Shown piece by piece: positions 36,651-59,420 of a stretch of DNA of 64,000 nt. The position numbers and the translations under genes are program-made. The notes under the pieces are model-generated. The model searched no databases, was not told where the DNA came from, and saw nothing but the letters and a program-made list of their open reading frames with translations. The DNA is taken from assembly GCA_017549815.1 (NCBI GenBank), contig JAFYNH010000018.1, positions 586 through 64,585 of the forward strand, written 5' to 3'. The DNA comes from Selenomonadaceae bacterium. GTDB lineage: Bacteria > Bacillota > Negativicutes > Selenomonadales > Selenomonadaceae. Numbering within the stretch: the first letter of the stretch is position 1; every line of letters begins with the position of its first letter.

Positions 36651-39140
36651 CTAACAGCCACCTTTAATCTTTGCCTCAAGTCGGCGACGTAATTCCTCAT
36701 GAAATTCTTCCGCGCCCGTCTGAAATTTTACTTCGACGCAGATAACGTAAATCGGTATGTTCCAATTTTCCCGCGCCACTTCTTCAGGAATTTTAACGGC
36801 GTCCTTTTCCGTAACGACAATCATCTCCGCCGCGAATGAATCCGCCCGCCGCAAAATATCTTCCATTTCCATAATTGTATAATCGTGGTGGTCGGGATAA
36901 CGCAAGCTCGAAATAATTTCCGCGCCTAAATCTCTTAACGTCCGTTCAAATGACGCGGGATTTCCGATTGCCGAGACAGCCATAACTTTTCTTTTAGAAA
37001 TTACCTCGACGGGAACGCCCTCGCCCGCCAAATCAGTTGCCCAATTCGCAATCGGTATCAGACAACGCGGTCTGTGAATACTCTCTACAATCTGCGCGGA
37101 AGAATTATATCTTGCAACGGTTTCACGAATCAAATCGCAGGAGCCTTCGCGAGCTTGGTCAACCTTCGTCATTAAGCAAACATCTGCGCGGCTTATATGC
37201 GACATAGATTCACGCAAAATCCCACGCGGCAAAAGATAGCCATTGCCGAAAAGGGAAACCGCGTCTATCAGTAAAATATCGAAGTCGCGAATAACTTGCC
37301 AATGTTGATAACCGTCGTCCAGAATCACAACTTCCGCGCCGAATTTTTCTATCGCATATTGTCCAGTAACCGCCCGCCTTGCGCCGATTAATACTGGCAC
37401 GTCCGGCAAATGTTTAGCCAACATATAGGCTTCGTCGCCCGCCTGCGTCGCGTCCATTTTTAAATTTTTCCCGTCCGAGACTATACCGACTTCGCCTTTA
37501 AACTTCGCCCGATAACCGCGATTCAAAATTACGACGCGATAACCCATGTCATGAATTTCTTTAGCCAATCGCTGAGCCGTCGGAGTTTTGCCCGTTCCGC
37601 CGACCGTGATATTTCCTAGACTTATAACAAAGCAATTCAATCGCTCCTTGCCCGAAAAGCCCAGTTCATAGCCGAGCAAGCGCAAATCAACCAACCCACG
37701 ATAAATCAGCGAGCCGAGATATAAAACAAAAATTATCAGCGGCGTAAAGGCTCCGCGAACTTCTTCATCATGAATCAGCTTTAGGAAATATGTTTGAACG
37801 TTTTCAATTTTCTCCGTCGTGCGAAGGCGTCGAGCACTTTCTTTAGCCTCATACTCTGTCAACATTTCCCGCAAAAGTACTGCAGACTTCCTCGACGCGC
37901 CGCGATTTTCATGAACAATTTTAATCGTTTCTTCCTCAAGGCGTTGACGCTCAGCGGGTTCGTCGAAAAGTTTTTTAACCTGCGCGGCAAGCTCATCATC
38001 ATTATTAACCGTGATACAAGCGTTGCGATTTTTAAACAGCGCGTGCAAGTCCTTAAAATTTTCCATGTGGTGTCCAACGATAATCGCCTTGCCGTGCGCC
38101 GCCGGTTCAAGGATATTATGCCCGCCGTGCGAAATCAAACTGCCGCCGACATAAATCACGTTGCCGACGCTGTAAACCTGTCCGAGTTCGCCGATTGTAT
38201 CAAGGATAATAATATCTTCGTTCGCGGGCGGACGTTTTTGTAATTCTGTCCGAGTGCCAACCGTAAAGCCCGCCGCCTTGCATAGCGCGACGACTTCACG
38301 AGTCCGCAAAAGTTCACGCGGAGCAATAATAAGACGCGCCTTCGGGTGATTTTCGCGAATCGCTTTGAACGCCTTAAGTACAAAATTTTCTTCGCCGCGA
38401 TGAGTACTGCCCGCTAAAAAAATTTCCTTAGCGTCCGTCAAGCCCATGTCCGACAGAATTTTTCTGCGCTGTTCGTCAGTCACGTCAGTATAAGTCTGAT
38501 CAAATTTCGTGTTGCCCGTGACAGTCACGAGTTCGGGCGGTGCTCCAAGCTGTTTGACAAAGCCCGCGTCGACCGATGACGCCATTGCGAAAAGTTTCAC
38601 CGTGCCTATCATGTCGCGCAGAATCGAAAACATGTACTTATAACGCTTAACGCTCTTTTCCGAAATGCGCCCGTTTACCATCATGACAGGTACTTGATTT
38701 TCTCGCGCCGCCTTTAAAAAGTTTGGCCAAAGTTCCGTCTCGACGTTCAGAAAAACTCGCGGGAAAATTTTTTTGAACACCGACTCCGATATAAACGGCA
38801 AGTCCAACGGGAAATAAATTATGCTGTCCGCGTCTTTGATGATTCGATTTGCCATTTCGTAGCCGCTTGTCGTCACTACCGAAACTAATATTGGCGACTT
38901 CGGGAACTCGCGGCGGAATTCTTTTATCAGCGGACTTGTCGCCACAATTTCGCCGACCGACGCCGCATGTACCCAGATACAATTTTTTTTCGCCACAGGG
39001 TCGAGTGCGCCCTTCGGGAAAAATCCGAAACTCTGTTTGATTCGCTCCACAAAGCCCCGCTCTCTTATCGAACGAATCATGAACACCGGAATTATTAATA
39101 TCACGACGAGTATCGCCGCAAAGTTGTAAAGTAATTGCAA
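36651..39140 (-). CDS. waaA/lpxK: Bifunctional Kdo transferase (WaaA/KdtA) fused to tetraacyldisaccharide 4'-kinase (LpxK)
   Basis: N-terminal half: WVHAASVGE and GGSL..HGGHN.LEPAA (KdtA). After an internal TM segment comes NITVGGTGKTP (LpxK P-loop) and ILDDGYQH. 829 aa in one frame. Confidence 0.85.
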   Translation of the reverse strand: MQLLYNFAAILVVILIIPVFMIRSIRERGFVERIKQSFGFFPKGALDPVAKKNCIWVHAASVGEIVATSPLIKEFRREFPKSPILVSVVTTSGYEMANRIIKDADSIIYFPLDLPFISESVFKKIFPRVFLNVETELWPNFLKAARENQVPVMMVNGRISEKSVKRYKYMFSILRDMIGTVKLFAMASSVDAGFVKQLGAPPELVTVTGNTKFDQTYTDVTDEQRRKILSDMGLTDAKEIFLAGSTHRGEENFVLKAFKAIRENHPKARLIIAPRELLRTREVVALCKAAGFTVGTRTELQKRPPANEDIIILDTIGELGQVYSVGNVIYVGGSLISHGGHNILEPAAHGKAIIVGHHMENFKDLHALFKNRNACITVNNDDELAAQVKKLFDEPAERQRLEEETIKIVHENRGASRKSAVLLREMLTEYEAKESARRLRTTEKIENVQTYFLKLIHDEEVRGAFTPLIIFVLYLGSLIYRGLVDLRLLGYELGFSGKERLNCFVISLGNITVGGTGKTPTAQRLAKEIHDMGYRVVILNRGYRAKFKGEVGIVSDGKNLKMDATQAGDEAYMLAKHLPDVPVLIGARRAVTGQYAIEKFGAEVVILDDGYQHWQVIRDFDILLIDAVSLFGNGYLLPRGILRESMSHISRADVCLMTKVDQAREGSCDLIRETVARYNSSAQIVESIHRPRCLIPIANWATDLAGEGVPVEVISKRKVMAVSAIGNPASFERTLRDLGAEIISSLRYPDHHDYTIMEMEDILRRADSFAAEMIVVTEKDAVKIPEEVARENWNIPIYVICVEVKFQTGAEEFHEELRRRLEAKIKGGC

Positions 39141-39168: not shown

Positions 39169-40032
39169 TTAAATTAAAGGCGCAAGTTCTCTTTGCATTT
39201 CAAGCGAAATACTTAACGCGCTCATTGCCGCCTCTGCTGTCAAATGAAAATTGACCATCAAGTTACGAATATTTTTAAGTGTGGTTATGCGTTCGCCTTC
39301 AGCCAAACCTTCAGCCAAACCTTCTTCGCGACCTTGAGCTATGTATGACCTTTTGGCGTCTTCCTCATTCCAAATAAGGTTTACCATAAAAAATACCTCC
39401 TTCATATGTGCCGATAAATAATTACGCATAACGTCGTTTTCTATGCACCATTTCATAGCGGAAATAATCGCCTCGTCGCGACTCATACCAATTTTAAGAT
39501 TAAACGCGACCCTGTCAATAAAACAACTGTAATCGTGTACGGAACGACATTCGCGAATCAAATTAAAATTTTTGTTGTAATTAATGTTGTAAACTTTAAC
39601 CGTCAATTCGACGTCGCCCGTCATGGAAAAAGCATCCGAAAGTTTCAAGGTACTCTCTTCCGGACAAGGTTCCTTGCCATTGTAGAAAACAAAAAACTTC
39701 GGCGCAGGTAATTTGATGATCCTTGTCCGATAAATCAAATCCTCTTTAATCGAACCGCGATAAAGCAATGACAGATAGAATAACATTCGGAGCGGCATAT
39801 TAAAATTCCGCGTGCTCTGGTGCTCGAAGAATACAAAACAATTTTCTCCCGCACTAAATGAAACGTCATTACGAAGGTTGCTGAATAAAATATCATCAAC
39901 ATTATTTTCGCTGAGTTGCTCCGCTTTCAAATTCAAACCCGTCACCACATTGCAAAGTTGAACGAAATTTTCTTTATCCCTGAAATAATCTCGGAACAGC
40001 GAATCACGGTAAATCTTTTTCGAGGAGTCCAA
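39169..40032 (-). CDS. Rpn-family recombination-promoting nuclease / putative transposase (PD-(D/E)XK, TIGR01784-like)
   Basis: SLFRDYFRDKENF..., VFFEHQSTRNFNMPLRMLFY, and a C-terminal helical region with the EGLAEGLAEGER repeat typical of this family. Confidence 0.75.
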   Translation of the reverse strand: MDSSKKIYRDSLFRDYFRDKENFVQLCNVVTGLNLKAEQLSENNVDDILFSNLRNDVSFSAGENCFVFFEHQSTRNFNMPLRMLFYLSLLYRGSIKEDLIYRTRIIKLPAPKFFVFYNGKEPCPEESTLKLSDAFSMTGDVELTVKVYNINYNKNFNLIRECRSVHDYSCFIDRVAFNLKIGMSRDEAIISAMKWCIENDVMRNYLSAHMKEVFFMVNLIWNEEDAKRSYIAQGREEGLAEGLAEGERITTLKNIRNLMVNFHLTAEAAMSALSISLEMQRELAPLI

Positions 40033-47246: not shown

Positions 47247-48263
47247 TCACCGTCCGTAAAGTTTTAAATCGGCTTGAACCATAATTTTAACCAGCTCGCG
47301 GAAGGAAACTTTGCGTTGCCAACCCAAAATTTTTTGTGCTTTGGAAGGGTCTCCCAAAAGTAAATCGACTTCGGCGGGACGAAAATATTTTGGATTAACA
47401 TCGACCAAAAGTTTTCCCGTTTTCGCGCAGTAACCTTTTTCTTCGACGCCTGTACCTTTCCAAGTAATTTTTATGCCGACCTCTTCAAATGCCGCCTCAA
47501 CAAATTCCCTAACCGTGTGGGTTTCGCCTGTCGCCAAAACAAAATCGTCGGGTTTGTCCTGTTGAAGAATCAACCATTGCCCTTCTACATAGTCTTTCGC
47601 AAAGCCCCAATCGCGTTTAGCGTCCAAATTGCCTAACGATAATTTTTCCTGCAAGCCCGCGCAGATTTTCGCAACCGCGATTGAAATTTTCCGCGTAACA
47701 AAATCTTCGCCGCGTCTCGGAGATTCGTGATTAAATAAAATCCCGTTGCAGGCGAACATACCATAAGCCTCGCGATAATTTACCGTTATCCAATATGAAT
47801 AAAGTTTCGCCGCTCCATACGGACTGCGCGGGTGAAACGGCGTTTTCTCGGATTGCGGCGCGGTTTCGGGCAAGCCTCCGAAAAGTTCAGACGTTGACGC
47901 TTGATAAAACTTCGTGTCAATCTTATTTTGACGAATCGCCTCTAAGATTTTAAGCGTGCCGACGCCCGTCGCCTCCGCTGTGTATTCAGGAACTTCAAAC
48001 GAAATCCCCACATGCGATTGAGCCGCCAAGTTGTAAACTTCGTCAGGCTGTATCTCGCGAATTAAATTGTTTAACCCCGATGAATCCGTCAAGTCGCCAT
48101 AGTGCAAGAAAAAATTTGCGTCGTTGATATGGTCAATTCGTTGTGTGCAAGGCGTGCTATGTCGCCGAATAAGCCCGTGAACTTCGTTGCCCTTCGACAG
48201 CAAAAGCTCCGCCAAATAAGAGCCGTCTTGCCCCGTCACGCCCGTTATCAGTGCTATTTTCAT
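47247..48263 (-). CDS. gmd: GDP-mannose 4,6-dehydratase
   Basis: [28 protein letters not shown] and NHESPRRG. The ATG at 48263 follows AGGAG. Confidence 0.9.
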
Positions 48264-48332: not shown

Positions 48333-48599
48333 TTATTTGTCGTCGTAATGACCTTTGCAAGATTTGACCGCAATAATATTTCCGTCTTTGATTTTATAAA
48401 TAAGGCGGTGTTCGTCATTGATTCTGCGCGACCAACCTTCCTCATGCTTAAGCTTTTCGGGTTTACCGATACCTTTAGCCGCGCCATTGCGTTCGATATC
48501 GTTAAGAATAGTGTCTATCTTGTCGAGAATTTTTCTGTCGTTATGCGCCCAATACATGAAGTCATTAAGAGCGTCATTTAAAAATAAAACGTTCGGCAT
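48333..48599 (-). CDS. yoeB: YoeB/Txe-family type II toxin (mRNA interferase)
   Basis: DFMYWAHNDRKILDKIDTILNDIERNG..GIGKPEKLKHEEGWSRRINDEHRLIYKI...CKGHY. The ATG shares one base with the upstream stop (TAATG). Confidence 0.85.
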   Translation of the reverse strand: MPNVLFLNDALNDFMYWAHNDRKILDKIDTILNDIERNGAAKGIGKPEKLKHEEGWSRRINDEHRLIYKIKDGNIIAVKSCKGHYDDK

Positions 48600-48823
48600 T
48601 AAAATTTCCTCAATTCTTCCAACGTAAACATTGTGCCGCAACCTGCCTCAAGTTCCTCTTCAGCGCGGTCGAGCTTGGCAAGAAACTTTGCGTTATTAAT
48701 GCACTGCTCAAATTTTTCTATCCCACGCATTTTGACTTCTTCGATAAAATATTTCCATTCACGCGGCGAGAAAGTAGTATTTTCGTCCGGAATGTCAATT
48801 GGATTTGTTTTATACTTTGCCAT
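48599..48823 (-). CDS. Cognate antitoxin, atypical: only the C-terminal toxin-binding-like tail resembles YefM/Phd
   Basis: 74 aa (MAKYKTNPIDIPDENTTF...LAKLDRAEEELEAGCGTMFTLEELRKF). AAAGGAGGG RBS. Placement and 1-nt overlap with yoeB support the call. The family assignment is weak. Confidence 0.55.
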   Translation of the reverse strand: MAKYKTNPIDIPDENTTFSPREWKYFIEEVKMRGIEKFEQCINNAKFLAKLDRAEEELEAGCGTMFTLEELRKF

Positions 48824-48836
48824 TTTAAACCCTCCT

Positions 48837-51158
48837 TTAAAAATCGGCGAGCGACAAAATTTTTTCACAGAGTTCTGGGAATTCGATACCAGCCGCCCTT
48901 GCCGCGTCGGGCACGAGTGAAGTCTCTGTCATACCGGGGATTGAATTAATCTCTATGACGTAGGGAATATTTTCTTCCGAAAGCATAACGTCAATCCGAG
49001 CGACGCCCGCGCATTTGCAAATTTTGAACGCCGCAATCGCCAACTTTTGAACTTCGGCGGTAACTTCGTCGGGAATCTGCGCGGGTACAATGTGCGTCGA
49101 CAAGCCCTTAGTGTATTTAGTTTTATAATCGTAGCGACCAGTCGTCGTGGTAATTTCAATAACGGGCAGAGCCTCTGCGTCGTCCTCATTACCCATAACC
49201 GCAACCGTCAATTCGCGCCCCTTAATAAATTCCTCAACCAAAATTTCGTCGCCCAAACTGAAAGCGTCTTCAATCGCCTCGTCAAGGTCAAGAGATTTTT
49301 CGACGATACTGACGCCGATACTGGAGCCTTGCGACGACGCCTTGATAACGACGGGCAAGCCGAATTTCTTTTCAATCTCGGCGGCAAGCTCAGTGTTGCG
49401 GTCGACTTCACGATAGACGGCGAATTTAGGCGTAGAAATCTGCGCTGAGTTAAGAAAATGTTTAGTGGCGATTTTATCCATAGTCAACGCGGCGGCAAGC
49501 ACTCCCGAACCCGTGTAAGGAATTTTCATCATTTCGAGCGTACCTTGAATCAGTCCGTCTTCGCCGTATTTTCCGTGAACCGCGTTAAAGACTATGCCGC
49601 AATTTTTTTCGCGAATCGTCTCGGCGAAAGTCTGCGGATTAAGTTCCATAAGTTCGACGTTATAATTTTTAGACTTAAGCGCGTCGGCAATCGCCTTTCC
49701 TGTGCGCCGCGAAACTTCAGCTTCCGTCGAAGTGCCGCCGCATACTACGACAATTTTTTTCTCGTGAAAGTCCTTGAGTAACTCCAAAAGTTCATCTCCC
49801 GTTTTATAAATATCGCCCGCGCCCATTGTGATAACCAAATCGCCCGGTGACAGTTGGTCTTTAATCGCGGCGGCAATGTTTTCACGATTAGGAATGTAGG
49901 AGACGGCTTGATTAGTTGCGCTCAAAACTTCTTGGACAATCGACTCGCCACCGACGCCCGAAATTTTTTCTTCGCCCGCAGAATAAACGTCAGTCAAAAT
50001 CAGATTATCCGCCTCGCGAAATGCCTTGCCGAATTCTTTAAGCAAAAGTTGCGTGCGGCTGTATCTGTGCGGCTGGAAGATACAAAAAATTTTATGGGGC
50101 TTAGTCTCGCGAGCGGCTTTAAGAGTGGCGGCAATTTCAGTCGGGTGATGCGCGTAGTCGTCGACAACCAAAATATTTCTGACGCGCCCTTTTACTTGGA
50201 AACGTCTCTTTGCGCCGTGAAAATTGCTTAAGCCTTCGGCAATCTTATCAAAACTTACGCCGACCTCAAGAGCCGTTGCAATCGTCGCCAGCGCGTTAAG
50301 GACGTTATGCCGCCCGTGAATCGACAAATTTATCTTGCCGAGAGTTTCTCCGCCGCGAACCGCCTCAAAAATAATTCCCTTAGTCGTCGTGCGAATGTTG
50401 CGGGCGGTAAAATCGGCGTCGTTATCAATGGCGTAGGAAATGACTTTACGCTTGATGTCCTTTGCAATGTCGCGCAGATTTTCGTTGTCAAAGCAGAGAA
50501 CTGCAACGCCCGACTCGCGATTGACATTTTCGATAAAAATTTTGAAGGCGGCGCGAATCCTTTCAACAGTGCCGTAATGGTCGAGGTGGTCGTCTTCGAC
50601 GTTGGTAACTACGGCTATCGCGGGCTTGAGCGTCAAAAAGGAGCCGTCACTTTCGTCGGCTTCGGTAACGAGCCAATCGCTTTTGCCTAAAACCGCGCCC
50701 GTGCCCAAGTCGGTTGATTCGCCGCCGATAATGATTGTCGGGTCGACGTCCGCGCTGTGCAAGACGTAACCAATCATTGAAGTCGTAGTAGTTTTGCCGT
50801 GCGAGCCGGAGACCGCGATACCTTTGCGCGAATTCAGCAGGTAAGAGTTAATGTCGGAGCGGTGGAGCTTAGGAATTTTAAATTTGCTAGCCGCAACGAC
50901 TTCTGGGTTATCGGCGGGAATAGCTGACGAGCAAACGATAGCCTCAACAGGATTGCCCTTTTCGTCAAGGATATTTTTAGCCTTATGTCCGACGAAAATT
51001 CTCGCGCCAAGATTTCTGAGCATGTCGAGCGTAGGAGAATCCTTGCTATCGGAGCCGCTGATTTCGCAACCGAGTTCAATCAAAATTTTAGCGAGCGCAC
51101 TCATACCCACGCCGCCAATTCCTATAAAGTGATATTTTTTCAAGCCGTCGAGTTTCAA
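48837..51158 (-). CDS. murC/ddl: Bifunctional UDP-N-acetylmuramate--L-alanine ligase / D-alanine--D-alanine ligase fusion
   Basis: HFIGIGGVGMSALA and GSHGKTTTTSM (MurC). From KIVVVCGGTSTEAEVS onward the sequence is a Ddl ATP-grasp domain ending EINSIPGMTETSLVP. 773 aa. Confidence 0.9.
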   Translation of the reverse strand: MKLDGLKKYHFIGIGGVGMSALAKILIELGCEISGSDSKDSPTLDMLRNLGARIFVGHKAKNILDEKGNPVEAIVCSSAIPADNPEVVAASKFKIPKLHRSDINSYLLNSRKGIAVSGSHGKTTTTSMIGYVLHSADVDPTIIIGGESTDLGTGAVLGKSDWLVTEADESDGSFLTLKPAIAVVTNVEDDHLDHYGTVERIRAAFKIFIENVNRESGVAVLCFDNENLRDIAKDIKRKVISYAIDNDADFTARNIRTTTKGIIFEAVRGGETLGKINLSIHGRHNVLNALATIATALEVGVSFDKIAEGLSNFHGAKRRFQVKGRVRNILVVDDYAHHPTEIAATLKAARETKPHKIFCIFQPHRYSRTQLLLKEFGKAFREADNLILTDVYSAGEEKISGVGGESIVQEVLSATNQAVSYIPNRENIAAAIKDQLSPGDLVITMGAGDIYKTGDELLELLKDFHEKKIVVVCGGTSTEAEVSRRTGKAIADALKSKNYNVELMELNPQTFAETIREKNCGIVFNAVHGKYGEDGLIQGTLEMMKIPYTGSGVLAAALTMDKIATKHFLNSAQISTPKFAVYREVDRNTELAAEIEKKFGLPVVIKASSQGSSIGVSIVEKSLDLDEAIEDAFSLGDEILVEEFIKGRELTVAVMGNEDDAEALPVIEITTTTGRYDYKTKYTKGLSTHIVPAQIPDEVTAEVQKLAIAAFKICKCAGVARIDVMLSEENIPYVIEINSIPGMTETSLVPDAARAAGIEFPELCEKILSLADF

Positions 51159-51159
51159 A

Positions 51160-51534
51160 TTATTTTTCCTCCCGTTTTATAACCTTGTTTAAATCTTTAT
51201 CGAAAGTGAAGACTTCCGCATTTTCCACATCATGATATGCCGCCAATATACAATCAACGAAATCAAGTTTTGTTTCGGCAAAAATTTTTATAGCGCGAAA
51301 TATTACTTCTCTGCGCTCCACTTCGACAAGATTCACAGCCGTAAAAAGTTGTCGAGCGATGTCTTTTCTTTCGACGTTATAAAATGTGCGTAAAACATGA
51401 TCCACTTCTGCCAAAACTTCTGGCAACGTCCAAGCACCGGCTTTTATAATTTCATCGGCTTGTTTAGCCTGTTTTTCATTGTCATGTAAAAGAGCGCGAA
51501 GTATAACATTTGTATCAACCAAGACTTTCGACAT
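51160..51534 (-). CDS. vapC: PIN-domain toxin (VapC family)
   Basis: VLVDTNVILR (Asp), PEVLAEV (Glu), LDFVDCIL and FTFDKD (acidic quartet). The stop is 1 nt from the murC ATG. Confidence 0.85.
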   Translation of the reverse strand: MSKVLVDTNVILRALLHDNEKQAKQADEIIKAGAWTLPEVLAEVDHVLRTFYNVERKDIARQLFTAVNLVEVERREVIFRAIKIFAETKLDFVDCILAAYHDVENAEVFTFDKDLNKVIKREEK

Positions 51535-51796
51535 ATTTTTTCACCACAGCCCTTTCCAATGCACTCTTTTCAAACGGAATTAATGCAGGGTTTGCATACT
51601 TTGCCAACGCGCCGAAAAGTTCTGTGTGTTCAACTTTGGGCTTATTTACAGGAATGCCCTCGCTTTGATTGACGTTGTACTTCACCAAAAGACTGATTGC
51701 TTCTGATAATGTCAAACCGATACTCGTATAAAGTTTCTCTGCCGCTTCCTTCAAATCGGCGTCCAATTCGATTTCAACAGTGATTTTGTCAGCCAT
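51515..51796 (-). CDS. RelB/DinJ-like antitoxin partnered with VapC
   Basis: ITVEIELDADLKEAAEKLYTSIGLTLSEAISLLVKY is an RHH DinJ-like N-terminus. It overlaps vapC by 20 nt. GAGGAGG RBS lies 12 nt after the murG stop. Confidence 0.7.
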   Translation of the reverse strand: MADKITVEIELDADLKEAAEKLYTSIGLTLSEAISLLVKYNVNQSEGIPVNKPKVEHTELFGALAKYANPALIPFEKSALERAVVKKYVESLG

Positions 51797-51808
51797 GATA
51801 AATCCTCC

Positions 51809-52903
51809 TCAAGTCAATTCTAAGATTAAGTCGGCGATTTCGTCTGCCGCATTTGGTTTTCCGAGTGATAAGCTTGCCGCCGCCATAGACTTTAATTTTT
51901 CGGACGAAGATAAAAGTTCGTCGAGATTTTTCTGTAAAAGCTCTGCCGTCAAGTCTTTATTTAAAATCATACGAGCCGCGCCCGCGTCGACAAGTGTACG
52001 CGCATTGAATTCTTGATGATTTTCTGCCGCGTAGGGATAAGGAATTAAAATTGAGGGAATTCCTCGCGCCGTCAATTCCGCTAAACCCGTTGCGCCTGCG
52101 CGGAATATTGCCAAATCAGCCATAGCCATAGCTTGCGGCATGTTGTAGAGGTAAGGCACGACTTTTATATTGGGCGCGTCGAGTACGTCGGTTAATTTAC
52201 TCGTGACAGAATCGAATTCGCCCTTGCCCGTGACGTGAAGAAATTGCGCAGAATTTTTCACAGCCGCCGACTTCAAAACGCCAATCATCGCGTCGTTAAT
52301 ACTTCGTGCTCCGCGACTGCCGCCCGATATTAAAACAATGGGCTTGTCGGTAGTGAATCCGAATTCTTTAAGCCCGTCTTCCCTATTAGCCAGCAAAACT
52401 TCTGCGCGAATCGGATTACCCGTGTAAATCGTCTTATCGGCGGGGAAATTTTTAAGGGCGTCTTGAGTGCCGACCGCGATTTTATTCACGAACTTAGACA
52501 AAATTTTATTCGTGACGCCTGCAACCGCGTTTTGTTCCTGAATCAGCGTGGGAACTTTCATAAGGCTTGCGGCAAGGAGAATCGGACCGCAGACGTAGCC
52601 GCCCGTCCCGACGACCACATTGGGTTTAAAATCTTTAACTATGTCGGAGGCGCGTTTTATACTCCAAATGGCGTTGGCGGCGCGAGAAATATTTTCCAAA
52701 GTGAAATGACGTTCAAGCCCGCCTTCCAACTTCAGCGCAGTAAAATTTATGCCCGCCTTCGGAACAATGTCAGCCTCCAAGCCCTTTTCGGTGCCGACGT
52801 ATAAAAATTCGGCGTCGGGGCGTTTATTTTTAATTGCATTTATGAGCGTCAACGCGGGGTAAATGTGTCCGCCCGTGCCGCCGCCGGATACGATTATCTT
52901 CAT
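51809..52903 (-). CDS. murG: UDP-N-acetylglucosamine--N-acetylmuramyl-(pentapeptide) pyrophosphoryl-undecaprenol GlcNAc transferase
   Basis: IIVSGGGTGGHIYPAL N-terminus. 364 aa with a GT28 layout. Confidence 0.9.
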   Translation of the reverse strand: MKIIVSGGGTGGHIYPALTLINAIKNKRPDAEFLYVGTEKGLEADIVPKAGINFTALKLEGGLERHFTLENISRAANAIWSIKRASDIVKDFKPNVVVGTGGYVCGPILLAASLMKVPTLIQEQNAVAGVTNKILSKFVNKIAVGTQDALKNFPADKTIYTGNPIRAEVLLANREDGLKEFGFTTDKPIVLISGGSRGARSINDAMIGVLKSAAVKNSAQFLHVTGKGEFDSVTSKLTDVLDAPNIKVVPYLYNMPQAMAMADLAIFRAGATGLAELTARGIPSILIPYPYAAENHQEFNARTLVDAGAARMILNKDLTAELLQKNLDELLSSSEKLKSMAAASLSLGKPNAADEIADLILELT

Positions 52904-52938
52904 GCTTTGCTGTTGCCTCGTTTTTTAAGCTTTGAGCT

Positions 52939-53310
52939 TTAAGCTTTAAGCTTTAAGGATAATTTATTAATCATTGAATTCAACATGCTACTAATTTCGG
53001 AAGATAAATTTAATGCCGTTTCAAGCTCAGATTCACTAAGATAATTAAGTCGAAGACAAACCAAAAGTTGAGTTTCAATTTCAGCTCTTGAACCTCTGGC
53101 AATAAACAAAAAACGAAGAAAATCCTTTTCAGAAGAACGCCCTCTCCCTTCGGCAATGTTTGAAGGAATGGAAACAACAGCGCGACGCATTTGGTCTGAC
53201 AGCGCGTAGGTTTCTTCTTTTGGTAATTTTTTGACGAGGTGATAGACTTCAACAAGTAAGTCCATAGATTTTTGCCAAACGATTAAATCTTTATGGTCTT
53301 TAGCAAACAT
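52939..53310 (-). CDS. Four-helix-bundle protein (23S rRNA intervening-sequence protein family, TIGR02436)
   Basis: LIVWQKSMDLLVEVYHLVKKLPKEETYALSDQMRRAVVSIPSNIAEGRGRSS.KDF.RFL.IARGS.AE..TQL is the family signature. Confidence 0.85.
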   Translation of the reverse strand: MFAKDHKDLIVWQKSMDLLVEVYHLVKKLPKEETYALSDQMRRAVVSIPSNIAEGRGRSSEKDFLRFLFIARGSRAEIETQLLVCLRLNYLSESELETALNLSSEISSMLNSMINKLSLKLKA

Positions 53311-53349
53311 AACGAAACTCCTTTTTTCCTGAAAGCTGACAGCTCTAAG

Positions 53350-54699
53350 CTAAAAGCTTTTTAATTTTTGAACAATCCGCTTAAAGTCGCGCCCTCGCTC
53401 CTCAAAATCGCTGTACATGTCGAAACTCGCGCAGGCAGGACTGAGCAACACAACTTGCGGCGGACAAGAAATATTTTTTGCAAGTTCAACGGCTTTTTCC
53501 ATTGAGTAACCCGCCTCAAGAATTTTATCAGCAGGGAAATTATTTTCAACCGCGCAGGTTTTGAATCGAGCCGCCGCATCGCCGACTAAGATTAAATAAT
53601 CGACGCGCTCCTTGACAAGTTTTAAAAAGTCCGTGAGGTCGGTACCCTTATCGTCGCCGCCCGCTATCAAGACAATATGCCCCGCGAAAGTCTCTAATGC
53701 CTTAATCGCCGAATCGGTATTGGTCGCCTTGCTGTCATTGTAGTATTTAACGCCGTCAAGCTCGCGAACAAATTCTATCCTGTGTTCGACGCCTTGAAAA
53801 GTTTTCAGCACGTTGCGAATTTTTTCAGCCTCGACGCCCGCGAGAAAGGCAATAAGCGACGACGCCAAAGCATTTTCGACATTATGCCCGCCCTTGATTC
53901 CGAGTTCGTCAATCGTACAGAGTTCATAAGTTGCGCCGTTGAATCTTACCACGAGCAAATTATTTTTAACAAACGCGCCTTCGTCAAGCGTCACTTTTCG
54001 GCTGAAGTAAAGCACTTTACAAGCGGCGCGGTTAATCATTTCGCGAGTACGTTCATCATCATAGTTAAGAATCAGAAAATCTTCGGCGGTCTCCTGCGCG
54101 AAAATTTTTTCCTTCATCGCCTGATAAACTTCCATAGTCCCATGCCGCTTTAAATGGTCGGGCGTAACGTTCAGTATCGCCGAAATGTGCGGCTTAAAAT
54201 TTTTAGTCGCCTCCATTTGATAGCTGGAAATTTCCGCCGCTAAATAGCCGCCCGCGCCGACTGCCAAAGCAACTTCGCTCAACGGTACGCCGATATTCCC
54301 GCCGACGCCGACTTTAGAATATTTTTCCTTAAGCAAAAGTCCGAGCAAAGTTACGGTTGTCGTCTTGCCGTTAGTGCCTGTCACCGCGCAGATTGGAGAC
54401 TTCGCCAAGTCATAAGCCAATTCGACTTCGCTGATAATTTTAATGCCCTGCGCGGTCGCCGCCTTAAGCAACGGAATTTTAATCGGGACGGCGGGCGAAA
54501 CAACTATTAAATCAACGCCGTTTAAAAGTTCGTCCGTCTGCTTGCCGAGTTTTATTTCCACTCCGCGCAGATTAATGTTGAGATTTTCTTTGCTGTCGCT
54601 CAATACGACTTGTGCGCCGATTTCATTTAAAATTTTCGCCGCCGCTATGCCGCTCCGAGCCGCTCCGATTACCAATACTTTTTTATTTGCCAAATCCAT
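53350..54699 (-). CDS. murD: UDP-N-acetylmuramoylalanine--D-glutamate ligase
   Basis: VLVIGAARSGIAAAKIL and VTGTNGKTTTV. 449 aa. Confidence 0.9.
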   Translation of the reverse strand: MDLANKKVLVIGAARSGIAAAKILNEIGAQVVLSDSKENLNINLRGVEIKLGKQTDELLNGVDLIVVSPAVPIKIPLLKAATAQGIKIISEVELAYDLAKSPICAVTGTNGKTTTVTLLGLLLKEKYSKVGVGGNIGVPLSEVALAVGAGGYLAAEISSYQMEATKNFKPHISAILNVTPDHLKRHGTMEVYQAMKEKIFAQETAEDFLILNYDDERTREMINRAACKVLYFSRKVTLDEGAFVKNNLLVVRFNGATYELCTIDELGIKGGHNVENALASSLIAFLAGVEAEKIRNVLKTFQGVEHRIEFVRELDGVKYYNDSKATNTDSAIKALETFAGHIVLIAGGDDKGTDLTDFLKLVKERVDYLILVGDAAARFKTCAVENNFPADKILEAGYSMEKAVELAKNISCPPQVVLLSPACASFDMYSDFEERGRDFKRIVQKLKSF

Positions 54700-54711
54700 T
54701 TAAAAGACTCC

Positions 54712-55671
54712 TCATAACATTGTTAAGCCCAACACGCCGAAAATCAATCCGACCGTCCAGAATACGAAGACAACTTTTATTTCAGACCAGCCGCCCAGCT
54801 CGAAGTGATGATGTAGCGGACTCATGCGGAATATTCGTTGCCCCGTCGTTTTGAACGAAATGACTTGCAGAATTACCGACAACGCCTCGCAGACGAATAC
54901 GAATCCAACGATTGCCAATAAAATTTCCGTGCGCGTCAAAATGCCGACTGCCGCGAACGCTCCGCCCAATGCAAGCGAACCTGTATCGCCCATGAAAACT
55001 TTCGCGGGGTGGAAGTTGAATTTCAAAAAGCCTATGCAAGCTCCGACTGTCGCCGCGCAGAAGATTGCCAAGTCGTCATGTCCCGTTAAAAGGCAAATCA
55101 CCGCGTAACAACTCGCCGCTATTGCCATGCAACCCGAAGCCAAGCCGTCTAATCCGTCCGTCAAATTAACCGCATTCGATGCGCCAACCATTACTATCAA
55201 CATGAACAATAAATAAAAGCTCCCCGCGTTAATCGTCGTGTTGATTATCGGTATCCAAATTGTCGGGCTGAAGTCCGTTAAAAGTTCGCTCGCTACAAAC
55301 GTCGTCACGATTACGATTAAAATTTGACCCGCCAATTTGTATCGCGCCAAAAGTCCTTGATTATGCTTGCGGACGACTTTTAAATAATCGTCGACGAAAC
55401 CTAAGATAAAGTGTCCGAGCAATATGAACAGCGCAAGGAAAATTTCCGTGTTCCACTCCGCCATTATCAGCGTCGCCGCCACTATCCCAGCAATTAAAAA
55501 TATTCCGCCCATTGTCGGTGTGCCGCTTTTCTTTTGGTGACTCTTCGGACCTTCGGCGCGTATGCTCTGTCCGAATTTCAATCTGTGTAAAATTGGTATG
55601 CAAATCGGCGCGAGTAAAATTACAACGCCCGCCGCGATTGCTCCTGCTATTAAAATTTTTTCCATATTCAA
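54712..55671 (-). CDS. mraY: Phospho-N-acetylmuramoyl-pentapeptide transferase
   Basis: HQKKSGTPTMGG, NLTDGLDGLA and PLHHHFE motifs. About 10 TM helices. Confidence 0.95.
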   Translation of the reverse strand: MNMEKILIAGAIAAGVVILLAPICIPILHRLKFGQSIRAEGPKSHQKKSGTPTMGGIFLIAGIVAATLIMAEWNTEIFLALFILLGHFILGFVDDYLKVVRKHNQGLLARYKLAGQILIVIVTTFVASELLTDFSPTIWIPIINTTINAGSFYLLFMLIVMVGASNAVNLTDGLDGLASGCMAIAASCYAVICLLTGHDDLAIFCAATVGACIGFLKFNFHPAKVFMGDTGSLALGGAFAAVGILTRTEILLAIVGFVFVCEALSVILQVISFKTTGQRIFRMSPLHHHFELGGWSEIKVVFVFWTVGLIFGVLGLTML

Positions 55672-56057
55672 CCCCGCTCGTCAGTTGATTGTTCATTTAT
55701 GCCGCTCGAAATCAAGTAAATAGCAAGCTGATTGAGTTTAACGCCCTCATACTCTGCGCGTTTCGCAAGTTTCCTGTGCAAACTCTTTGGGATTCGCAAT
55801 TTCAATCGCCCGTTGTATTTGTCAAAGTCAGGCTCGTCAATCGATTGCCCCAAATCTAACGCCGTTTCAAGCCAGCAAATTTTTGCGTCCTCTATCATTT
55901 CAAGAACTTCTTCGCGAGTTTCGCCTTGAGTTATGCAACCGGGCAAATCTGGTATTGTTCCGACGTAACCGCCTTCGGGCGAAGGGATTATCACGATTTC
56001 ATAGGGCAACGCCGCATAATATTTTAAATCCTTTTCCGAAGTCATTTTTTCTTCCAT
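55668..56057 (-). CDS. hicB: HicB-family antitoxin (HicB fold + C-terminal RHH)
   Basis: LPYEIVIIPSPEGGYVGTIPDLPGCITQGETREEVLEMIEDA plus LRIPKSLHRKLAKRAEYEGVKLNQ. Its TGA overlaps the mraY ATG (ATGA). Confidence 0.85.
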   Translation of the reverse strand: MEEKMTSEKDLKYYAALPYEIVIIPSPEGGYVGTIPDLPGCITQGETREEVLEMIEDAKICWLETALDLGQSIDEPDFDKYNGRLKLRIPKSLHRKLAKRAEYEGVKLNQLAIYLISSGINEQSTDERG

Positions 56058-56078
56058 AGAAATTTCTCCTCGTTGAGA

Positions 56079-56312
56079 TTATAAATTCAATGCGCGAATA
56101 ACAGCTTGAACGTAAATTTCATTAATGTAAGGTTTATGATAAGGAATCGTTATCGGATCGTTATTCGGTTTCCTGTATGTGTAATGGCTTGAACCGCCGC
56201 GAGGTTGTGATTTTTCATAGCCTGCATTCAAAAGTATTTTATCAAGTTCCTCAAAGCGGACAGTCTTGGGATTATTTTTGATTCGTTGAAGGAGTTTTTC
56301 AAGTTTACTCAT
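56079..56312 (-). CDS. hicA: HicA-family toxin (mRNA interferase)
   Basis: RFEELDKILLNAGYEKSQPRGGSSHYTYRK. The ATG directly abuts the murF TAA. Confidence 0.85.
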   Translation of the reverse strand: MSKLEKLLQRIKNNPKTVRFEELDKILLNAGYEKSQPRGGSSHYTYRKPNNDPITIPYHKPYINEIYVQAVIRALNL

Positions 56313-57680
56313 TTAAATCAGCTCGATAATTTTTTCCATATGCATGACGTGTGACGCCTTGAATAAAATCGTATCGCCGTCGCGAACAAGTTCCAAAATT
56401 TTTTTAGCAGCGTCTTCGTGCGTGTCAAAGCTGTAAATATTTTTTAAGCCCGCGTCACGTGCGCCCGCCGCTATAAATTTTCCAAGCTCGCCAAGAGTTA
56501 CTAACGTGTTAAAGTTATTCTCGGCAAGCTCCGCGCCAATTTCTCTGTGAACGCGCTCCGAAATATCGCCAAGCTCCAACATGTCGCCCAAAACCGCGAT
56601 TAATCGCCCGTCATAAACTTCAGCCGCTGTCTTAATAGCAACACGCATTGAAGCAGGGCTTGCGTTATAAGCGTCGTTAATTATTGTCAAGCCGTCGCGC
56701 CGAATCACCTCGAAACGCATTTTAGTCGTTGTCAACGTAGAAAAGCCGCGCTGAACTTCGGGAACAGTCAAGCCGCAAGCATAACCCGCCGCGATTGCCG
56801 CCAATGCATTTGAAACATTGTGGCGACCGAGCATCGGAATTTCAAAGTCATATTCCTTGCCTCGAAAACTCAAAGTGAATTCCGTCGAAACGCTCCCGAT
56901 TAAAACATTTTTGCCAATAAAATCCGCGTCCTTTTCAAGCGCGTAGGTCAAAACTTTTACGCCGTCGCCCGCAAGATTTTTCATCGCCGCCGTATGGATA
57001 TTATCCGCGTTCAAAATAATCGTGCCGCCCGCTTGAATCGCCTCGACCAATTCGCCCTTTGCCTTAGCAATATTTTCTATCGAGCCTAAAAGTTCAATGT
57101 GCGTTTCGCTGACATTAGTAACAATGCCGATTGTCGGTTTGACGACCTGCGCGAGAATCTCAATCTGTCCAAGCCCGCGCATACCGATTTCGACGACCGC
57201 CGCTTTATGTTTATTGTTAAGCTCAAGCAACGTCATCGGAACGCCGATTTCATTATTAAAATTGCCCGAAGTCTTTTGAACTTGCCCCAAGCTGTTAAGG
57301 GCGGCGGCGGTTAAATCTTTTGTGGTAGTCTTGCCGTTTGAACCCGTCACTGCAACAATCGGAATATTAAAGCGATTTCTCCACGCGCCCGCGATTTGAC
57401 GATAAGCTTTCAATGTGTCGTCGACCTTTAAAACAATGCCGTCGAGATTCTTATTGAAATTTTTGCTGACAAGGACGGCAGACGCTCCTTTTTTAAGCGC
57501 GTCGTCGGCAAAATCTTCGCCGTTGAATTTTTCGCCCTTAAGTGCGACGAATAACACGCCGCTTGTAATTTTCCTGCTGTCGGTCGTGACGCCCTCAAAA
57601 GTGATATTCCCTTTATCCCCGACCCCTAAATCCTTAATCCCTAAAACCTGCGCGACTTCTGCCAAACTTAATTTATTCAT
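56313..57680 (-). CDS. murF: UDP-N-acetylmuramoyl-tripeptide--D-alanyl-D-alanine ligase
   Basis: VTGSNGKTTTKD and a Mur ligase layout. The ATG at 57680 lies 8 nt after GGAGG and overlaps the murE end by 8 nt. Confidence 0.9.
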   Translation of the reverse strand: MNKLSLAEVAQVLGIKDLGVGDKGNITFEGVTTDSRKITSGVLFVALKGEKFNGEDFADDALKKGASAVLVSKNFNKNLDGIVLKVDDTLKAYRQIAGAWRNRFNIPIVAVTGSNGKTTTKDLTAAALNSLGQVQKTSGNFNNEIGVPMTLLELNNKHKAAVVEIGMRGLGQIEILAQVVKPTIGIVTNVSETHIELLGSIENIAKAKGELVEAIQAGGTIILNADNIHTAAMKNLAGDGVKVLTYALEKDADFIGKNVLIGSVSTEFTLSFRGKEYDFEIPMLGRHNVSNALAAIAAGYACGLTVPEVQRGFSTLTTTKMRFEVIRRDGLTIINDAYNASPASMRVAIKTAAEVYDGRLIAVLGDMLELGDISERVHREIGAELAENNFNTLVTLGELGKFIAAGARDAGLKNIYSFDTHEDAAKKILELVRDGDTILFKASHVMHMEKIIELI

Positions 57681-59151
57681 TGTTAATTCCTCCAACATTT
57701 TTTATTGCCTCCAGCGCAACTTCTCTGTCGTCGAAGTGAATCTTCCCTGTATTCAAAATCTGATAAGTTTCATGCCCCTTGCCAAGAATTAAAACTACGT
57801 CGCCCGCCTTTGCAAGTTCAATCGCCCTAAAGATTGCGGCTTGTCTGTCGGCAATGCGCTCGTGATTTTTCTTGCCAATCCCGACTTCAATATCGTCCAA
57901 AATTTTTTCGGGGTCTTCGGTGCGCGGATTGTCGCTCGTGATTATCAGTATGTCGCTAAGCTCGGAGGCGGTTTTACCCATAATCGCCCGCTTGCCGTGA
58001 TCTCTATCGCCGCCGCAACCGACCACCGTTATAATTTTTCCTTTGACAATCTGCGCGGCTGTCTCCAAAACATTTTTAACACCGTCGGGCGTGTGCGCGT
58101 AGTCAACGATAACCTCGAAAGGAGCCGTTGAAAAAATTCGCTCGAAACGTCCGGGCACGCTTTTAAAATTTTCAAGGGCGCGTTTAATAATTTCGGGATT
58201 AATATCTTCAGCCGTCGCCGCCCCGACCGCCGCCAATACATTATAGACGTTAAAAATCCCCGTGATCTTTAGGGAAATAGGGAAATGGGGAATTAGGGAA
58301 ATAGTCATTCCGTCGGAGCGAATATCAAGTTCTGTTCCGCGCAGATTAGCAGGATTTTTTATGCCGTAAGTAATCGTTTCGCAGAGACAATGCTTTAAAA
58401 TTTCCGTGCTTGCCGCGTCGTCAACGTTTATGACGGCGTGTTTATTTTGCTTGCGACCTCTGCGCGATACAGCGTCGAAAAGTTTAGCCTTCGCCCGCAA
58501 ATAATTTTCCATTGTCAAATGAAAATCCAAATGGTCTTGAGTTAAGTTTGTAAAAATCGCCGTGTCGAATTCGACGCCCGCAACTCTGTTTTCTGCCAAT
58601 GCGTGGCTTGAAACTTCCATGACAACTACTTGAATATTTTTATCAAGCATTTCAACGAAAATTTTCTGCAAATCGATAACGTTGGGCGTCGTGTTGCGGA
58701 CGGGAAAACTTTCTTCGCCGATAAGATTTTGAATCGTGCCAATCAATCCGACTTTAAAGCCCGCGCAGGTAAAAATTTCGCGCAAAAGATAACTCGTCGT
58801 CGTCTTGCCGTTCGTGCCCGTGATTCCTATCACTCTCATCTTCCGCGAAGGATAATCATAAAAATACGGGACGATAACCGCCAGCGCGTTCAGCATATCG
58901 GGGACAATCAGCGCGGAAATATTTTCGGGCGGAGTAAAATTTTTTCTCGTCGTCAAGACAGCAACCGCCCCTTTGTCCGTCGCTTGCGGAATAAAATTAT
59001 GCCCGTCAACGTGTGCGCCTTCCATACACACGAACAGATTTTTTGTCGTAACCTTGCGCGAATCGTGTTCAATCCCGCTGACTTCGACATCTTCGCCGAC
59101 AATCTGCGCGTCGGGAATAAGCAATGCAAGTTCGCTCAATTTCTTTATCAA
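57673..59151 (-). CDS. murE: UDP-N-acetylmuramoyl-L-alanyl-D-glutamate--2,6-diaminopimelate ligase
   Basis: GITGTNGKTTTSYL. The DNPR motif (SDNPRTEDP) indicates meso-DAP specificity. Confidence 0.9.
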   Translation of the reverse strand: MIKKLSELALLIPDAQIVGEDVEVSGIEHDSRKVTTKNLFVCMEGAHVDGHNFIPQATDKGAVAVLTTRKNFTPPENISALIVPDMLNALAVIVPYFYDYPSRKMRVIGITGTNGKTTTSYLLREIFTCAGFKVGLIGTIQNLIGEESFPVRNTTPNVIDLQKIFVEMLDKNIQVVVMEVSSHALAENRVAGVEFDTAIFTNLTQDHLDFHLTMENYLRAKAKLFDAVSRRGRKQNKHAVINVDDAASTEILKHCLCETITYGIKNPANLRGTELDIRSDGMTISLIPHFPISLKITGIFNVYNVLAAVGAATAEDINPEIIKRALENFKSVPGRFERIFSTAPFEVIVDYAHTPDGVKNVLETAAQIVKGKIITVVGCGGDRDHGKRAIMGKTASELSDILIITSDNPRTEDPEKILDDIEVGIGKKNHERIADRQAAIFRAIELAKAGDVVLILGKGHETYQILNTGKIHFDDREVALEAIKNVGGINNE

Positions 59152-59420
59152 AACCTCGCCTCCCTCCTGTTTGCCGTCAATTATAATTGAACTTTACATG
59201 AAAAGACAATGCCGAATAAAAATTTTTAACCCAAACTTCTTGAAGATTAATTTTCGACAAGAAAAGTTTTCGCAAATGCTTGACAATTTAGGGGGTGTTT
59301 ATAATGTTAATGTTTAGTATGAATTTGTCTTTTGGTTTTTATGAAAGGATGATTTTATGAACGACAAAGAAGACGACTCGACGCGGATAACTCTTTTATT
59401 ACTTGAAAGGAAGTGACGAC

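Follow-up and report, generated by a model that had tools for sequence, protein, structure and literature searches.

The stretch studied here is a 64,000-nucleotide (nt) segment of contig JAFYNH010000018.1 (assembly GCA_017549815.1), referred to at its full length as the window, and our attention was focused on its peptidoglycan precursor (mur) operon, whose gene junctions hold three toxin-antitoxin (TA) pairs and a fourth insertion of another kind. The host is an uncultured rumen bacterium of the Selenomonadaceae, represented by a metagenome-assembled genome (MAG) of the Quinella clade; the sequences closest to its MurD (80-92% identity) carry Selenomonadaceae or Quinella MAG labels and come from rumen samples as well. 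Between positions 48333 and 59151, the minus strand reads murE, murF, hicA-hicB, mraY, murD, a 23S_rRNA_IVP (hereafter IVP) gene, murG, relB/dinJ-PIN(vapC), murC::ddl and an orphan antitoxin-yoeB pair (Table 1). From murE to yoeB, the intergenic distances are -26, 0, 21, 2, 12, 39, 35, 12, -20, 1, 13 and -1 nt, negative values being overlaps. An earlier note on this DNA had proposed this order, strand and tight spacing, which the gene coordinates confirm (gaps of -26 to +39 nt). It had also argued that the cassettes lack space for promoters and terminators of their own, in agreement with the 0-13 nt that separate each TA pair from the gene upstream and with a promoter and terminator consensus scan, in which no terminator-like site was found at any operon junction.

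The best minus-strand promoter-like site located just upstream of any start codon is TTGTCT-18-TATAAT, in the 268-nt divergent intergenic region that precedes murE. Moreover, the G+C content at third codon positions (GC3) is 0.28-0.46 in the cassettes as compared to 0.50-0.56 in the mur genes, a lower value from which we read a foreign composition. As the cassettes have no room for a promoter or operator of their own, we infer that they are operon passengers, partly translationally coupled to their neighbors.

The window derives from a metagenome contig, RelB scores barely above its Pfam cut-off and a sixth TA protein has no family, all of which would fit a chimeric assembly, or chance small open reading frames (ORFs) miscalled as TA genes. 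However, copies identical in MurG are present on eight contigs, the longest of 152 kb; two of these eight places come from separate samples and show the same layout, and the other six were flagged as having mostly the same neighbors. The layout is also common to sister species. Because contigs with identical MurG from different samples and sister species agree, the arrangement is not an assembly artefact. In addition, ratios of nonsynonymous to synonymous divergence (dN/dS) of 0.04-0.23 indicate real coding sequences, and the scores of five of the six TA proteins exceed the Pfam gathering thresholds, which is the profile support that the earlier note had named as a check on its family calls. 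An artefact is, therefore, extremely improbable.

Table 1. Coordinates of the operon features in the window, of its flanks and of the SMR genes found in related loci (aa, amino acids).
Feature	Position	Strand	Evidence or remark
murE (UDP-MurNAc-tripeptide synthetase, meso-diaminopimelate type), TTG start	57673..59151	-	NF001126 606 bits (cut-off 373)
murF, 26-nt overlap with murE	56313..57698	-	TIGR01143 430 bits (cut-off 288.6)
hicA toxin, 77 aa, GC3 0.31	56079..56312	-	PF07927 HicA_toxin 33.3 bits (cut-off 27)
hicB antitoxin, 129 aa	55668..56057	-	PF15919 HicB_lk_antitox 43.9 bits and PF05534 HicB 36 bits
mraY, 317 aa	54712..55665	-	Glycos_transf_4 and MraY_sig1
murD, last codons inside the 5' arm of the IVP stem	53350..54699	-	gene call, homologues
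Stem 5' arm, period-7 array (AGCTTTN units), spans murD stop codon	53328..53359	-	repeat search, folding
23S_rRNA_IVP / S23p four-helix-bundle ORF, 123 aa, GC3 0.28	52939..53310	-	PF05635 138.9 bits (cut-off 33.8); TIGR02436 135.5 bits
Stem 3' arm, (TTAAAGC)n, overlaps end of IVP ORF	52924..52960	-	complementary to 5' arm; stops ~20 nt before murG start
murG	51809..52903	-	Glyco_transf_28 and Glyco_tran_28_C
relB/dinJ-family antitoxin, 93 aa, 12 nt after murG	51515..51796	-	PF04221 RelB 24.0 bits (cut-off 22.4)
PIN-domain (VapC-like) toxin, 124 aa	51160..51534	-	PF01850 PIN 54.7 bits (cut-off 23.6)
murC::ddl fusion, single 773-aa ORF	48837..51158	-	profile searches
Orphan putative antitoxin, 74 aa	48599..48823	-	13 nt after ddl; ATGA overlap onto yoeB
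yoeB toxin, 88 aa	48333..48599	-	PF06769 YoeB_toxin 88.9 bits (cut-off 27); TIGR02116 78.7 (cut-off 51.8)
Candidate operon promoter, TTGTCT-18-TATAAT	59180..59209	-	~30 nt upstream of murE start; consensus match only
GDP-mannose 4,6-dehydratase	47247..48263	-	69 nt downstream of yoeB; position held by ftsQ in several relatives
Divergent giant repeat protein, >1920 aa	59420..64000	+	weak HemolysinCabind match; runs off the window
SMR genes of relatives, murD|murG	L005:11343-11666; L006:7103-7432; L042:8731-9060; L017:11362-11688; L172:6717-7058		murD|murG junction

Three TA pairs at the junctions of the mur genes

Three complete and co-oriented type II TA pairs, with toxins of three different families, are located at mur junctions, as the earlier note had stated, the partner of YoeB being assigned as an antitoxin by its position only. 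Judging from their families, HicA, the PIN protein and YoeB would be RNase toxins restrained by their partner antitoxins.

At murF|mraY, the hicA ATG immediately follows the murF stop codon (0-nt gap) in the window and in five relatives, and hicB lies 21 nt past hicA and 2 nt ahead of the mraY ATG, in the toxin-first order of HicAB systems. The two profile matches of HicB agree with an antitoxin made up of a HicB-like N-terminal fold and a DNA-binding C-terminal part. The autoregulated promoter/operator that is a hallmark of HicAB was not found here, and a promoter inside murF is possible. HicA had no NCBIfam match and gave nothing usable in a PDB sequence search. Occupancy of the same junction by hicAB was observed in L004, L006, L009, L012, L027, L172 and L174 (L-numbers denote loci of relatives), and HicB copies that are more divergent (71% and 64% identity) recur at murF|mraY. 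A further hicA-hicB pair, with a 69%-identical HicB, closes a prophage that carries baseplate and tail genes, and lies beside a phage integrase gene (L176:3758-4399), and a prophage is possibly the kind of source from which hicAB came.

In the murG|murC cassette, the PIN gene overlaps relB by 20 nt and its stop codon is separated from the murC start by 1 nt. The conserved acidic residues of the PIN domain, D7, E43, D94 and D112, are legible (in VDTNV, PEVLAEV, LDFVDC and FDKD, respectively), and the protein falls far under the NCBIfam VapC equivalog cut-off (22.3 vs 80); a PDB sequence search with it returned nothing usable. RelB, in turn, is below the NCBIfam RelB_DinJ cut-off. The antitoxin partner of this PIN toxin is thus of the RelB/DinJ type and not a classical VapB.

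The YoeB protein encoded after ddl matches YoeB from S. aureus (6l8e; E 1e-21), with GKPEKLK, SRRI and the C-terminal HY aligned, including the catalytic His-Tyr, and the catalytic Glu, Arg, His and Tyr expected of a YoeB/Txe toxin are present; the GKPEKLK and C-terminal CKGHY motifs are conserved. Its 74-aa partner has no match in Pfam, NCBIfam, PHROG or PDB, nor was it placed in the Phd/YefM family, and it is a putative antitoxin by position only (ATGA overlap, and conservation together with yoeB in L010 and L166-L171). The 105 homologue clusters of this 74-aa family come, every one, from rumen Selenomonadaceae, and an AlphaFold (AF2) model built from a shallow alignment is helical and of low confidence (pLDDT, the model's own confidence score, 63). 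In other rumen Selenomonadaceae (L163-L171), the antitoxin-yoeB pair lies in line directly behind grpE-dnaK, where conserved unknown genes of ~1070-1134, 384 and 195 aa follow it; the fragment of the MmeI target recognition domain (TRD) that is found after the L010 cassette sometimes follows the pair here as well. One copy sits behind an opposite-strand AAA gene. Free-standing fragments of the MmeI TRD and C-terminal region (~317 aa) are located right after the yoeB cassette or ddl in L010:16480-17433, L005:15559-16506 and L169:8491-9450. In the window itself, a 909-aa ORF (29002-31731, plus strand) has a C-terminal part 48% identical to the MmeI TRD/C-terminal fragment, which suggests an MmeI-like enzyme.

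These MmeI fragments fused to the yoeB cassette, the phage-borne hicAB relative and other defence-type genes near the operon in relatives (GmrSD and McrB-like, beside murE in L013 and L014) are features that agree with an anti-phage role. Under such a scheme, cassettes driven by a housekeeping promoter would serve abortive infection: phage shut-off of host transcription would halt the supply of antitoxins and free the RNase toxins, and the reliance on host transcription imposed by the tight spacing agrees with it. Nevertheless, PADLOC models matched none of the seven cassette proteins, and the preference for mur junctions over other constitutive operons would be left unexplained, so that we consider this role improbable.

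The murD|murG insertion is an IVS-type element

The gene between murD and murG belongs to an element of the intervening sequence (IVS), or S23p, type. The earlier note had recognized a four-helix-bundle protein but had not seen the long stem of inverted heptamer arrays that makes the insertion an IVS-type element. Period-7 arrays at 53329-53358 and 52924-52957 flank the ORF, which has a GGAG ribosome-binding site; on the mRNA strand, these arrays read (AGCUUUN)n upstream and (UUAAAGC)n downstream of it. Both the minimum free energy and the centroid folds of 52905-53370 pair the two arms around the IVP ORF, and the arm duplex has an energy of -33.6 kcal/mol, as compared to -20.6 +/- 2.5 for a shuffled arm. 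In six species, arm duplexes range from -34 to -52 kcal/mol (-20 to -29 when shuffled); the heptamer unit varies by species (AGCUUUN, GGUUUUA, UAUAGCU, GCUUUAA) and complementarity is retained. By analogy with the 23S IVS of Coxiella and Leptospira, the ~27-bp stem is likely an RNase III substrate, and its processing would cut the transcript between murD and murG. The location between these two genes departs from the insertion into a 23S helix that is typical of IVS; Rfam and tRNA scans of the window gave no match and no rRNA.

Inverted-heptamer hairpins lacking any ORF were detected between murE and murF in L004:6900-7010, L012:3205-3315 and L014:7505-7600 (z-scores of -4.8 to -6.2), together with a weaker one at mraY|murD in L013:9885-10005. 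They may be solo stems that remained after loss of the ORF, or independent elements.

The generality of this association was evaluated on 80 metagenome loci (L083-L162) with IVP homologues of 45-67% identity, 68 of which have both flanks. The flank duplex energy fell below the 5th percentile of mismatched-flank controls in 17 of the 68 loci, with 3.4 expected, and the strongest flank duplexes were all inverted heptamer arrays with locus-specific units (e.g., GGGACTA/CCCTAAT, AGGCACA/TGTGCCT and GAGTTGT/ACAACTC). As the loci share similar repeat units, the mismatched-flank control is broad, and a periodicity test was therefore added: strict period-7 arrays were present in 28 of the 68 flanks, and none at periods 4, 5, 6, 9 or 10. 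The upstream neighbor is co-oriented with the IVP gene in 34 of 38 loci, and both neighbors in 25 of 38, typically at a distance of ~50 nt. Overall, IVP homologues from diverse environments are often enclosed by inverted heptamer arrays.

A solo array, (AATGAGG) x 5.3, was also noted at positions 21937-21972 of the window, exactly at the junction of the co-oriented ORFs 20449-21948 and 21911-22531, the latter resembling by eye a PabA/TrpG-type amidotransferase; no complementary partner of this array was found in the window.

Distribution, age and decay of the cassettes in related genomes

A MurD scan of species-representative genomes provided 43 loci from Selenomonadaceae (L003-L045), flanked by as much as 10 kb per side, and the comparison was centered on 14 species-level loci of the Quinella clade. 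Among these, hicAB was found in six (murF|mraY), IVP in seven (murD|murG), relB-PIN in eight (murG|murC) and antitoxin-yoeB in two, plus one remnant (after ddl). The locus L003 carries no cassette at all, and its junctions are 12-14 nt spacers or ATGA overlaps, as in Selenomonas; none of these cassettes was found at the mapped loci of Selenomonas, Mitsuokella or Centipeda. The comparison of murE-murC loci proposed in the earlier note thus gave a mixed answer: the same junctions are used in many sister species, with patchy occupancy, remnants and one empty locus. A tree of concatenated Mur proteins is near-star within the Quinella clade, and cassette states are distributed patchily over it, even between sisters. 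Each cassette is dispensable, as sister taxa differ in content and L003 is empty.

Pairwise synonymous divergence (dS) is 1.2-1.5 for cassette genes vs 1.0-1.2 for mur genes, and dN/dS amounts to 0.14 for hicA, 0.13 for hicB, 0.10 for IVP, 0.23 for relB, 0.17 for PIN/vapC, 0.07 for the antitoxin and 0.04 for yoeB, with 0.08-0.13 for mur genes. Because dS matches that of the mur genes and dN/dS is low, the cassettes appear to have resided at their junctions for a time comparable to the age of the clade, with their proteins under selection. Signs of decay are also present: in L011, all that remains is the C-terminal part of relB and a fragment of yoeB, the PIN/vapC gene of L013 has an internal deletion, and in L163-L165 an intact antitoxin is accompanied by a yoeB truncated to 45 aa. 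In an addiction module, the toxin is expected to decay ahead of its antitoxin.

The same junctions accept genes of other kinds. A small multidrug resistance (SMR) gene is located at murD|murG in L004, L005, L006, L042, L017 and L172, sometimes alongside an IVP gene, in a seamless insertion, with the murD stop codon overlapping the start of the SMR gene and no space left between its stop and the murG ATG; an SMR remnant with an internal deletion is found in L008:10151-10309. At other junctions, L025 has an unknown 220-aa gene together with an EamA transporter, L028 a cupin, and L020 a 368-aa gene with an OB-fold protein. The systematic coupling of TA modules to lipid II synthesis suggested by the earlier note is not sustained, since the junctions also hold SMR, EamA, cupin and OB-fold genes and the antitoxin-yoeB pair also resides behind grpE-dnaK.

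These results bear on the possibility that the cassettes have been domesticated as a checkpoint, in which the supply of toxins and antitoxins would be slaved to transcription of the mur operon: when that transcription drops, labile antitoxins would decay, RNA would be cut, and translation and growth would stop whenever wall precursors lag behind. The absence of space for autoregulatory operators, with 0-13 nt upstream of each cassette, is in agreement with it, as are the presence in one operon of three toxins of different families, all expected to target RNA, their long retention under purifying selection at fixed junctions, and the enrichment of TA pairs relative to the flanks that is described below. 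However, a checkpoint would hardly be expected to be patchy even among sister taxa and missing entirely from one species, nor to have lost its toxins by decay in some lineages; in addition, the junctions are shared with unrelated cargo (SMR, EamA, cupin, IVP), and a position behind dnaK suits the yoeB cassette just as well. We therefore regard a domesticated checkpoint as rather unlikely.

Local enrichment of TA pairs

The operon holds three TA pairs in 10.8 kb, as compared to a single one (brnT/brnA) across the remaining 53 kb. In ten related mur operons, 12 TA pairs were counted, and no TA family was detected in the 91.5 kb flanking them when plausible-looking ORFs of up to 170 aa were searched against Pfam. 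Taking a background of one pair per 145 kb, the Poisson probability of finding three pairs in 10.8 kb is ~7e-5. These figures support a locus bias for retention and are not proof of targeted insertion.

The single pair outside the operon, at 22889-23354 on the minus strand, consists of a BrnT toxin (23052-23354, PF04365, E 1.5e-25) and a likely BrnA-type ORF, and lies 119 nt after a TPR-protein gene.

The mur genes and their missing division neighbors

The order murE-murF-mraY-murD-murG-murC-ddl of the dcw (division and cell wall) cluster is conserved here. Homologues of ftsL, ftsQ and ftsZ were not found in the window by tblastn with Selenomonas proteins, nor were FtsW, FtsI, MraZ or RsmH domains among the subset of window ORFs scanned. 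The absence of division genes claimed in the earlier note thus stands for the window, but it is not specific to this locus. At every Selenomonadaceae locus at which both genes were mapped, those of cultured Selenomonas bovis, S. noxia, S. infelix and Centipeda among them, murD is followed by murG, often with an ATGA overlap, and ftsW is absent between the two. In S. noxia, the block is preceded by recG, dapB, asd, an opposite-strand gene and an ftsL-like gene and followed by ftsQ, an unknown gene and ftsZ, and mraZ, rsmH and ftsI are not attached to it. Loss of the fts neighbors is, therefore, a trait of the Selenomonadaceae lineage, and the absence of ftsW and ftsI from the locus is family-wide. 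The MurC::Ddl fusion is common to the Quinella clade and oral Selenomonas, and the two genes are split in the S. bovis / Mitsuokella group.

Both flanks of the operon are additionally scrambled in the Quinella clade. In the window, a divergent giant gene precedes murE, as the earlier note had described. The gene at that position differs in nearly all of ten Quinella-clade relatives checked, which have sulfatase-type, M18 peptidase, spermidine-synthase-like, phosphoenolpyruvate carboxykinase (L006, L042), PrmC, exonuclease, S49 peptidase, GmrSD and McrB-like genes there. Downstream of ddl, ftsQ is retained in five relatives (L003, L005, L010, L012, L014) and not in the window, and, unlike in Selenomonas, no clear ftsZ follows ftsQ at any Quinella-clade locus. 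A weak FtsZ-like tblastn match (28%) was noted at L013:20369-21121, ~5 kb downstream of the mur operon.

In a neighboring clade (L016, L021, L022), the operon is broken up, with mutS, an M18 aminopeptidase gene, murD and murG, and then dprA-topA or McrBC-like genes. As this fragmented operon lacks the TA cassettes described here, and as the murE-to-ddl block is intact, amid scrambled surroundings, at all Quinella-clade loci long enough to show it, the TA modules might have been selected as a penalty on deletions or rearrangements that separate or remove mur genes, a function proposed for TA cassettes of superintegrons. Nevertheless, essential mur genes need no extra stabilizer against their loss, the block is intact in L003 and L005, which have no TA pair, and L174 carries hicAB in an operon that stops after mraY, beside another giant HemolysinCabind gene. 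A stabilizing role is, in our view, quite improbable.

Other features observed in the window were a KdtA::LpxK fusion protein of 829 aa (36651-39140, minus strand), a 2930-aa repeat protein with 267-nt tandem repeats (6225-15017, plus strand), a DDE transposase fragment (27489-27722, plus strand) and a YhgA/Rpn-like putative transposase (39169-40032, minus strand).

Origin and persistence of the cassettes

Of the two explanations offered by the earlier note, selfish cassettes residing where their loss is counter-selected give the best fit to the comparative data, which neither support nor contradict the other, a stress-responsive brake on wall synthesis; we favor, with a probability of roughly 55%, the view that the cassettes are promoter-less, selfish foreign cargo trapped in the essential mur operon. 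In a lineage with heavily scrambled gene order, the essential mur block would be one of few stable sites, in which only co-oriented, junction-precise and non-polar insertions would survive. Once inside, the only probable ways out for a passenger would be near-precise deletion and recombination with an empty allele, as sloppy deletions would damage essential neighbors, and for TA pairs losing the antitoxin first would be lethal. Trapping of this kind accounts for the fixed positions, age, purifying selection, patchiness and remnants of the cassettes, as well as for cargo other than TA pairs and for the second location of the yoeB cassette, after dnaK.

Several points weigh against this explanation. 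Strong purifying selection and persistence over a dS of ~1 are equally expected under domestication, and the description of the cassettes as old as the clade is only approximate, because a dS of ~1 is near saturation. The near-star tree cannot separate repeated loss from recombinational shuffling, so that vertical descent with losses is indistinguishable from an old polymorphism shuffled by homologous recombination. As for the enrichment, the counts are not phylogenetically independent and correspond to about three ancestral insertions instead of twelve, the flank scan covered, with its plausible-looking ORFs of up to 170 aa, a small sample of each genome, and the excess in the operon could reflect selection for position instead of mere retention. 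Moreover, neither an alignment of filled and empty junctions nor an inverted-repeat search revealed repeats or att-like sites flanking the TA cassettes, and no insertion mechanism was identified; a flanking structure was found at the IVP cassette only. Finally, we infer from the gene arrangement that the cassettes are co-transcribed with the operon and have no promoters within the upstream coding sequence, and three cassettes have weak sigma-70-like matches, in themselves uninterpretable, 145-210 nt upstream of them, within murD, murG and ddl.

Two broader, doubtful readings can be formulated. In one, the three promoter-less RNase TA pairs would form a transcription-coupled checkpoint tying growth to lipid II synthesis under starvation, envelope stress or phage shut-off. 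In the other, the stem-enclosed IVP element would represent a widespread, promoter-less class that rides on operons, may process host RNA and is marked by inverted heptamer arrays.

Whichever reading applies, the operon is a natural test bed for the debated purpose of chromosomal TA modules, as sister species with empty junctions are built-in controls, and it can separate selfish and trapped modules from a domesticated checkpoint. It also suggests that an essential operon in a scrambled genome can gather small foreign genes, namely TA pairs, SMR efflux genes and IVS-type elements. Furthermore, the S23p/IVP family has been a puzzle since the 1990s, and our results suggest that its members usually ride on host transcripts, co-oriented and enclosed by a stem, and are not an rRNA peculiarity, making their RNA processing, and possibly their mobility, testable.

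Comparison with known systems

TA modules, S23p IVS elements and MurC-Ddl fusions are individually known. The murE-to-ddl order and the fusion of murC with ddl are shared with the canonical dcw cluster and with the MurC-Ddl chimeras known in Chlamydiae and Firmicutes (PMC10214165), and the locus differs from the canonical cluster in having no attached mraZ, rsmH, ftsI, ftsW, ftsQ, ftsA or ftsZ.

Type II TA modules co-transcribed with housekeeping genes are represented by relA-mazEF of E. coli and mazEF-rsbUVW-sigB of S. aureus, which are single modules at an operon edge and have their own promoter. The likeness lies in TA and host genes sharing one transcription unit, as is probable here, with supply tied to the host promoter; the difference is that here three modules, with toxins of different families, are embedded in a single essential biosynthetic operon, each 0-13 nt past the gene that precedes it and at clade-conserved positions. 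TA cassettes of integrons and superintegrons, for which stabilizing or selfish roles have been proposed, are likewise compact and arranged in one orientation. However, no attC-type repeats were found at the TA cassettes described here and no integrase domain among the subset of window ORFs scanned, and the "array" is an essential operon.

The element between murD and murG resembles the IVS of 23S rRNA genes from Coxiella, Leptospira and Brucella in its PF05635 ORF, complementary arms, stem of ~27-28 bp and heptamers adjoining the ORF; in Coxiella and Leptospira, the 23S IVS has an S23p ORF with tandem heptamers beside it and a 28-bp terminal stem, and RNase III cleavage of the Coxiella stem was shown experimentally (PMC4990558). 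It differs in being located between protein-coding genes of an mRNA operon, and not in 23S helix 25 or 45. In addition, the Coxiella S23p ORF was reported as decaying and probably untranslated (PMC4990558), whereas the IVP ORF of the window combines a good ribosome-binding site with purifying selection (dN/dS 0.10). Its arms are also reminiscent of the 70-75 convergent pairs of GGGAATC arrays in Xanthomonas and of the heptamer arrays in Nostoc (PMC4692102), which are intergenic tandem heptamers, often in inverted pairs with potential to form stem-loops. No S23p/IVP ORF is mentioned for those arrays, whereas here, and at numerous metagenome loci, the paired arrays enclose such an ORF and the unit depends on the locus.

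In the searchable literature, we found neither TA modules embedded in Quinella, the dcw cluster or mur genes, nor S23p genes linked to paired heptamer arrays outside rRNA, and an earlier description of either is possible. Altogether, set against these known systems, what appears to be new is the embedding of three promoter-less TA modules, at clade-conserved positions, in a mur operon, together with an IVS-type element that lies in an mRNA operon and has covarying heptamer arms.

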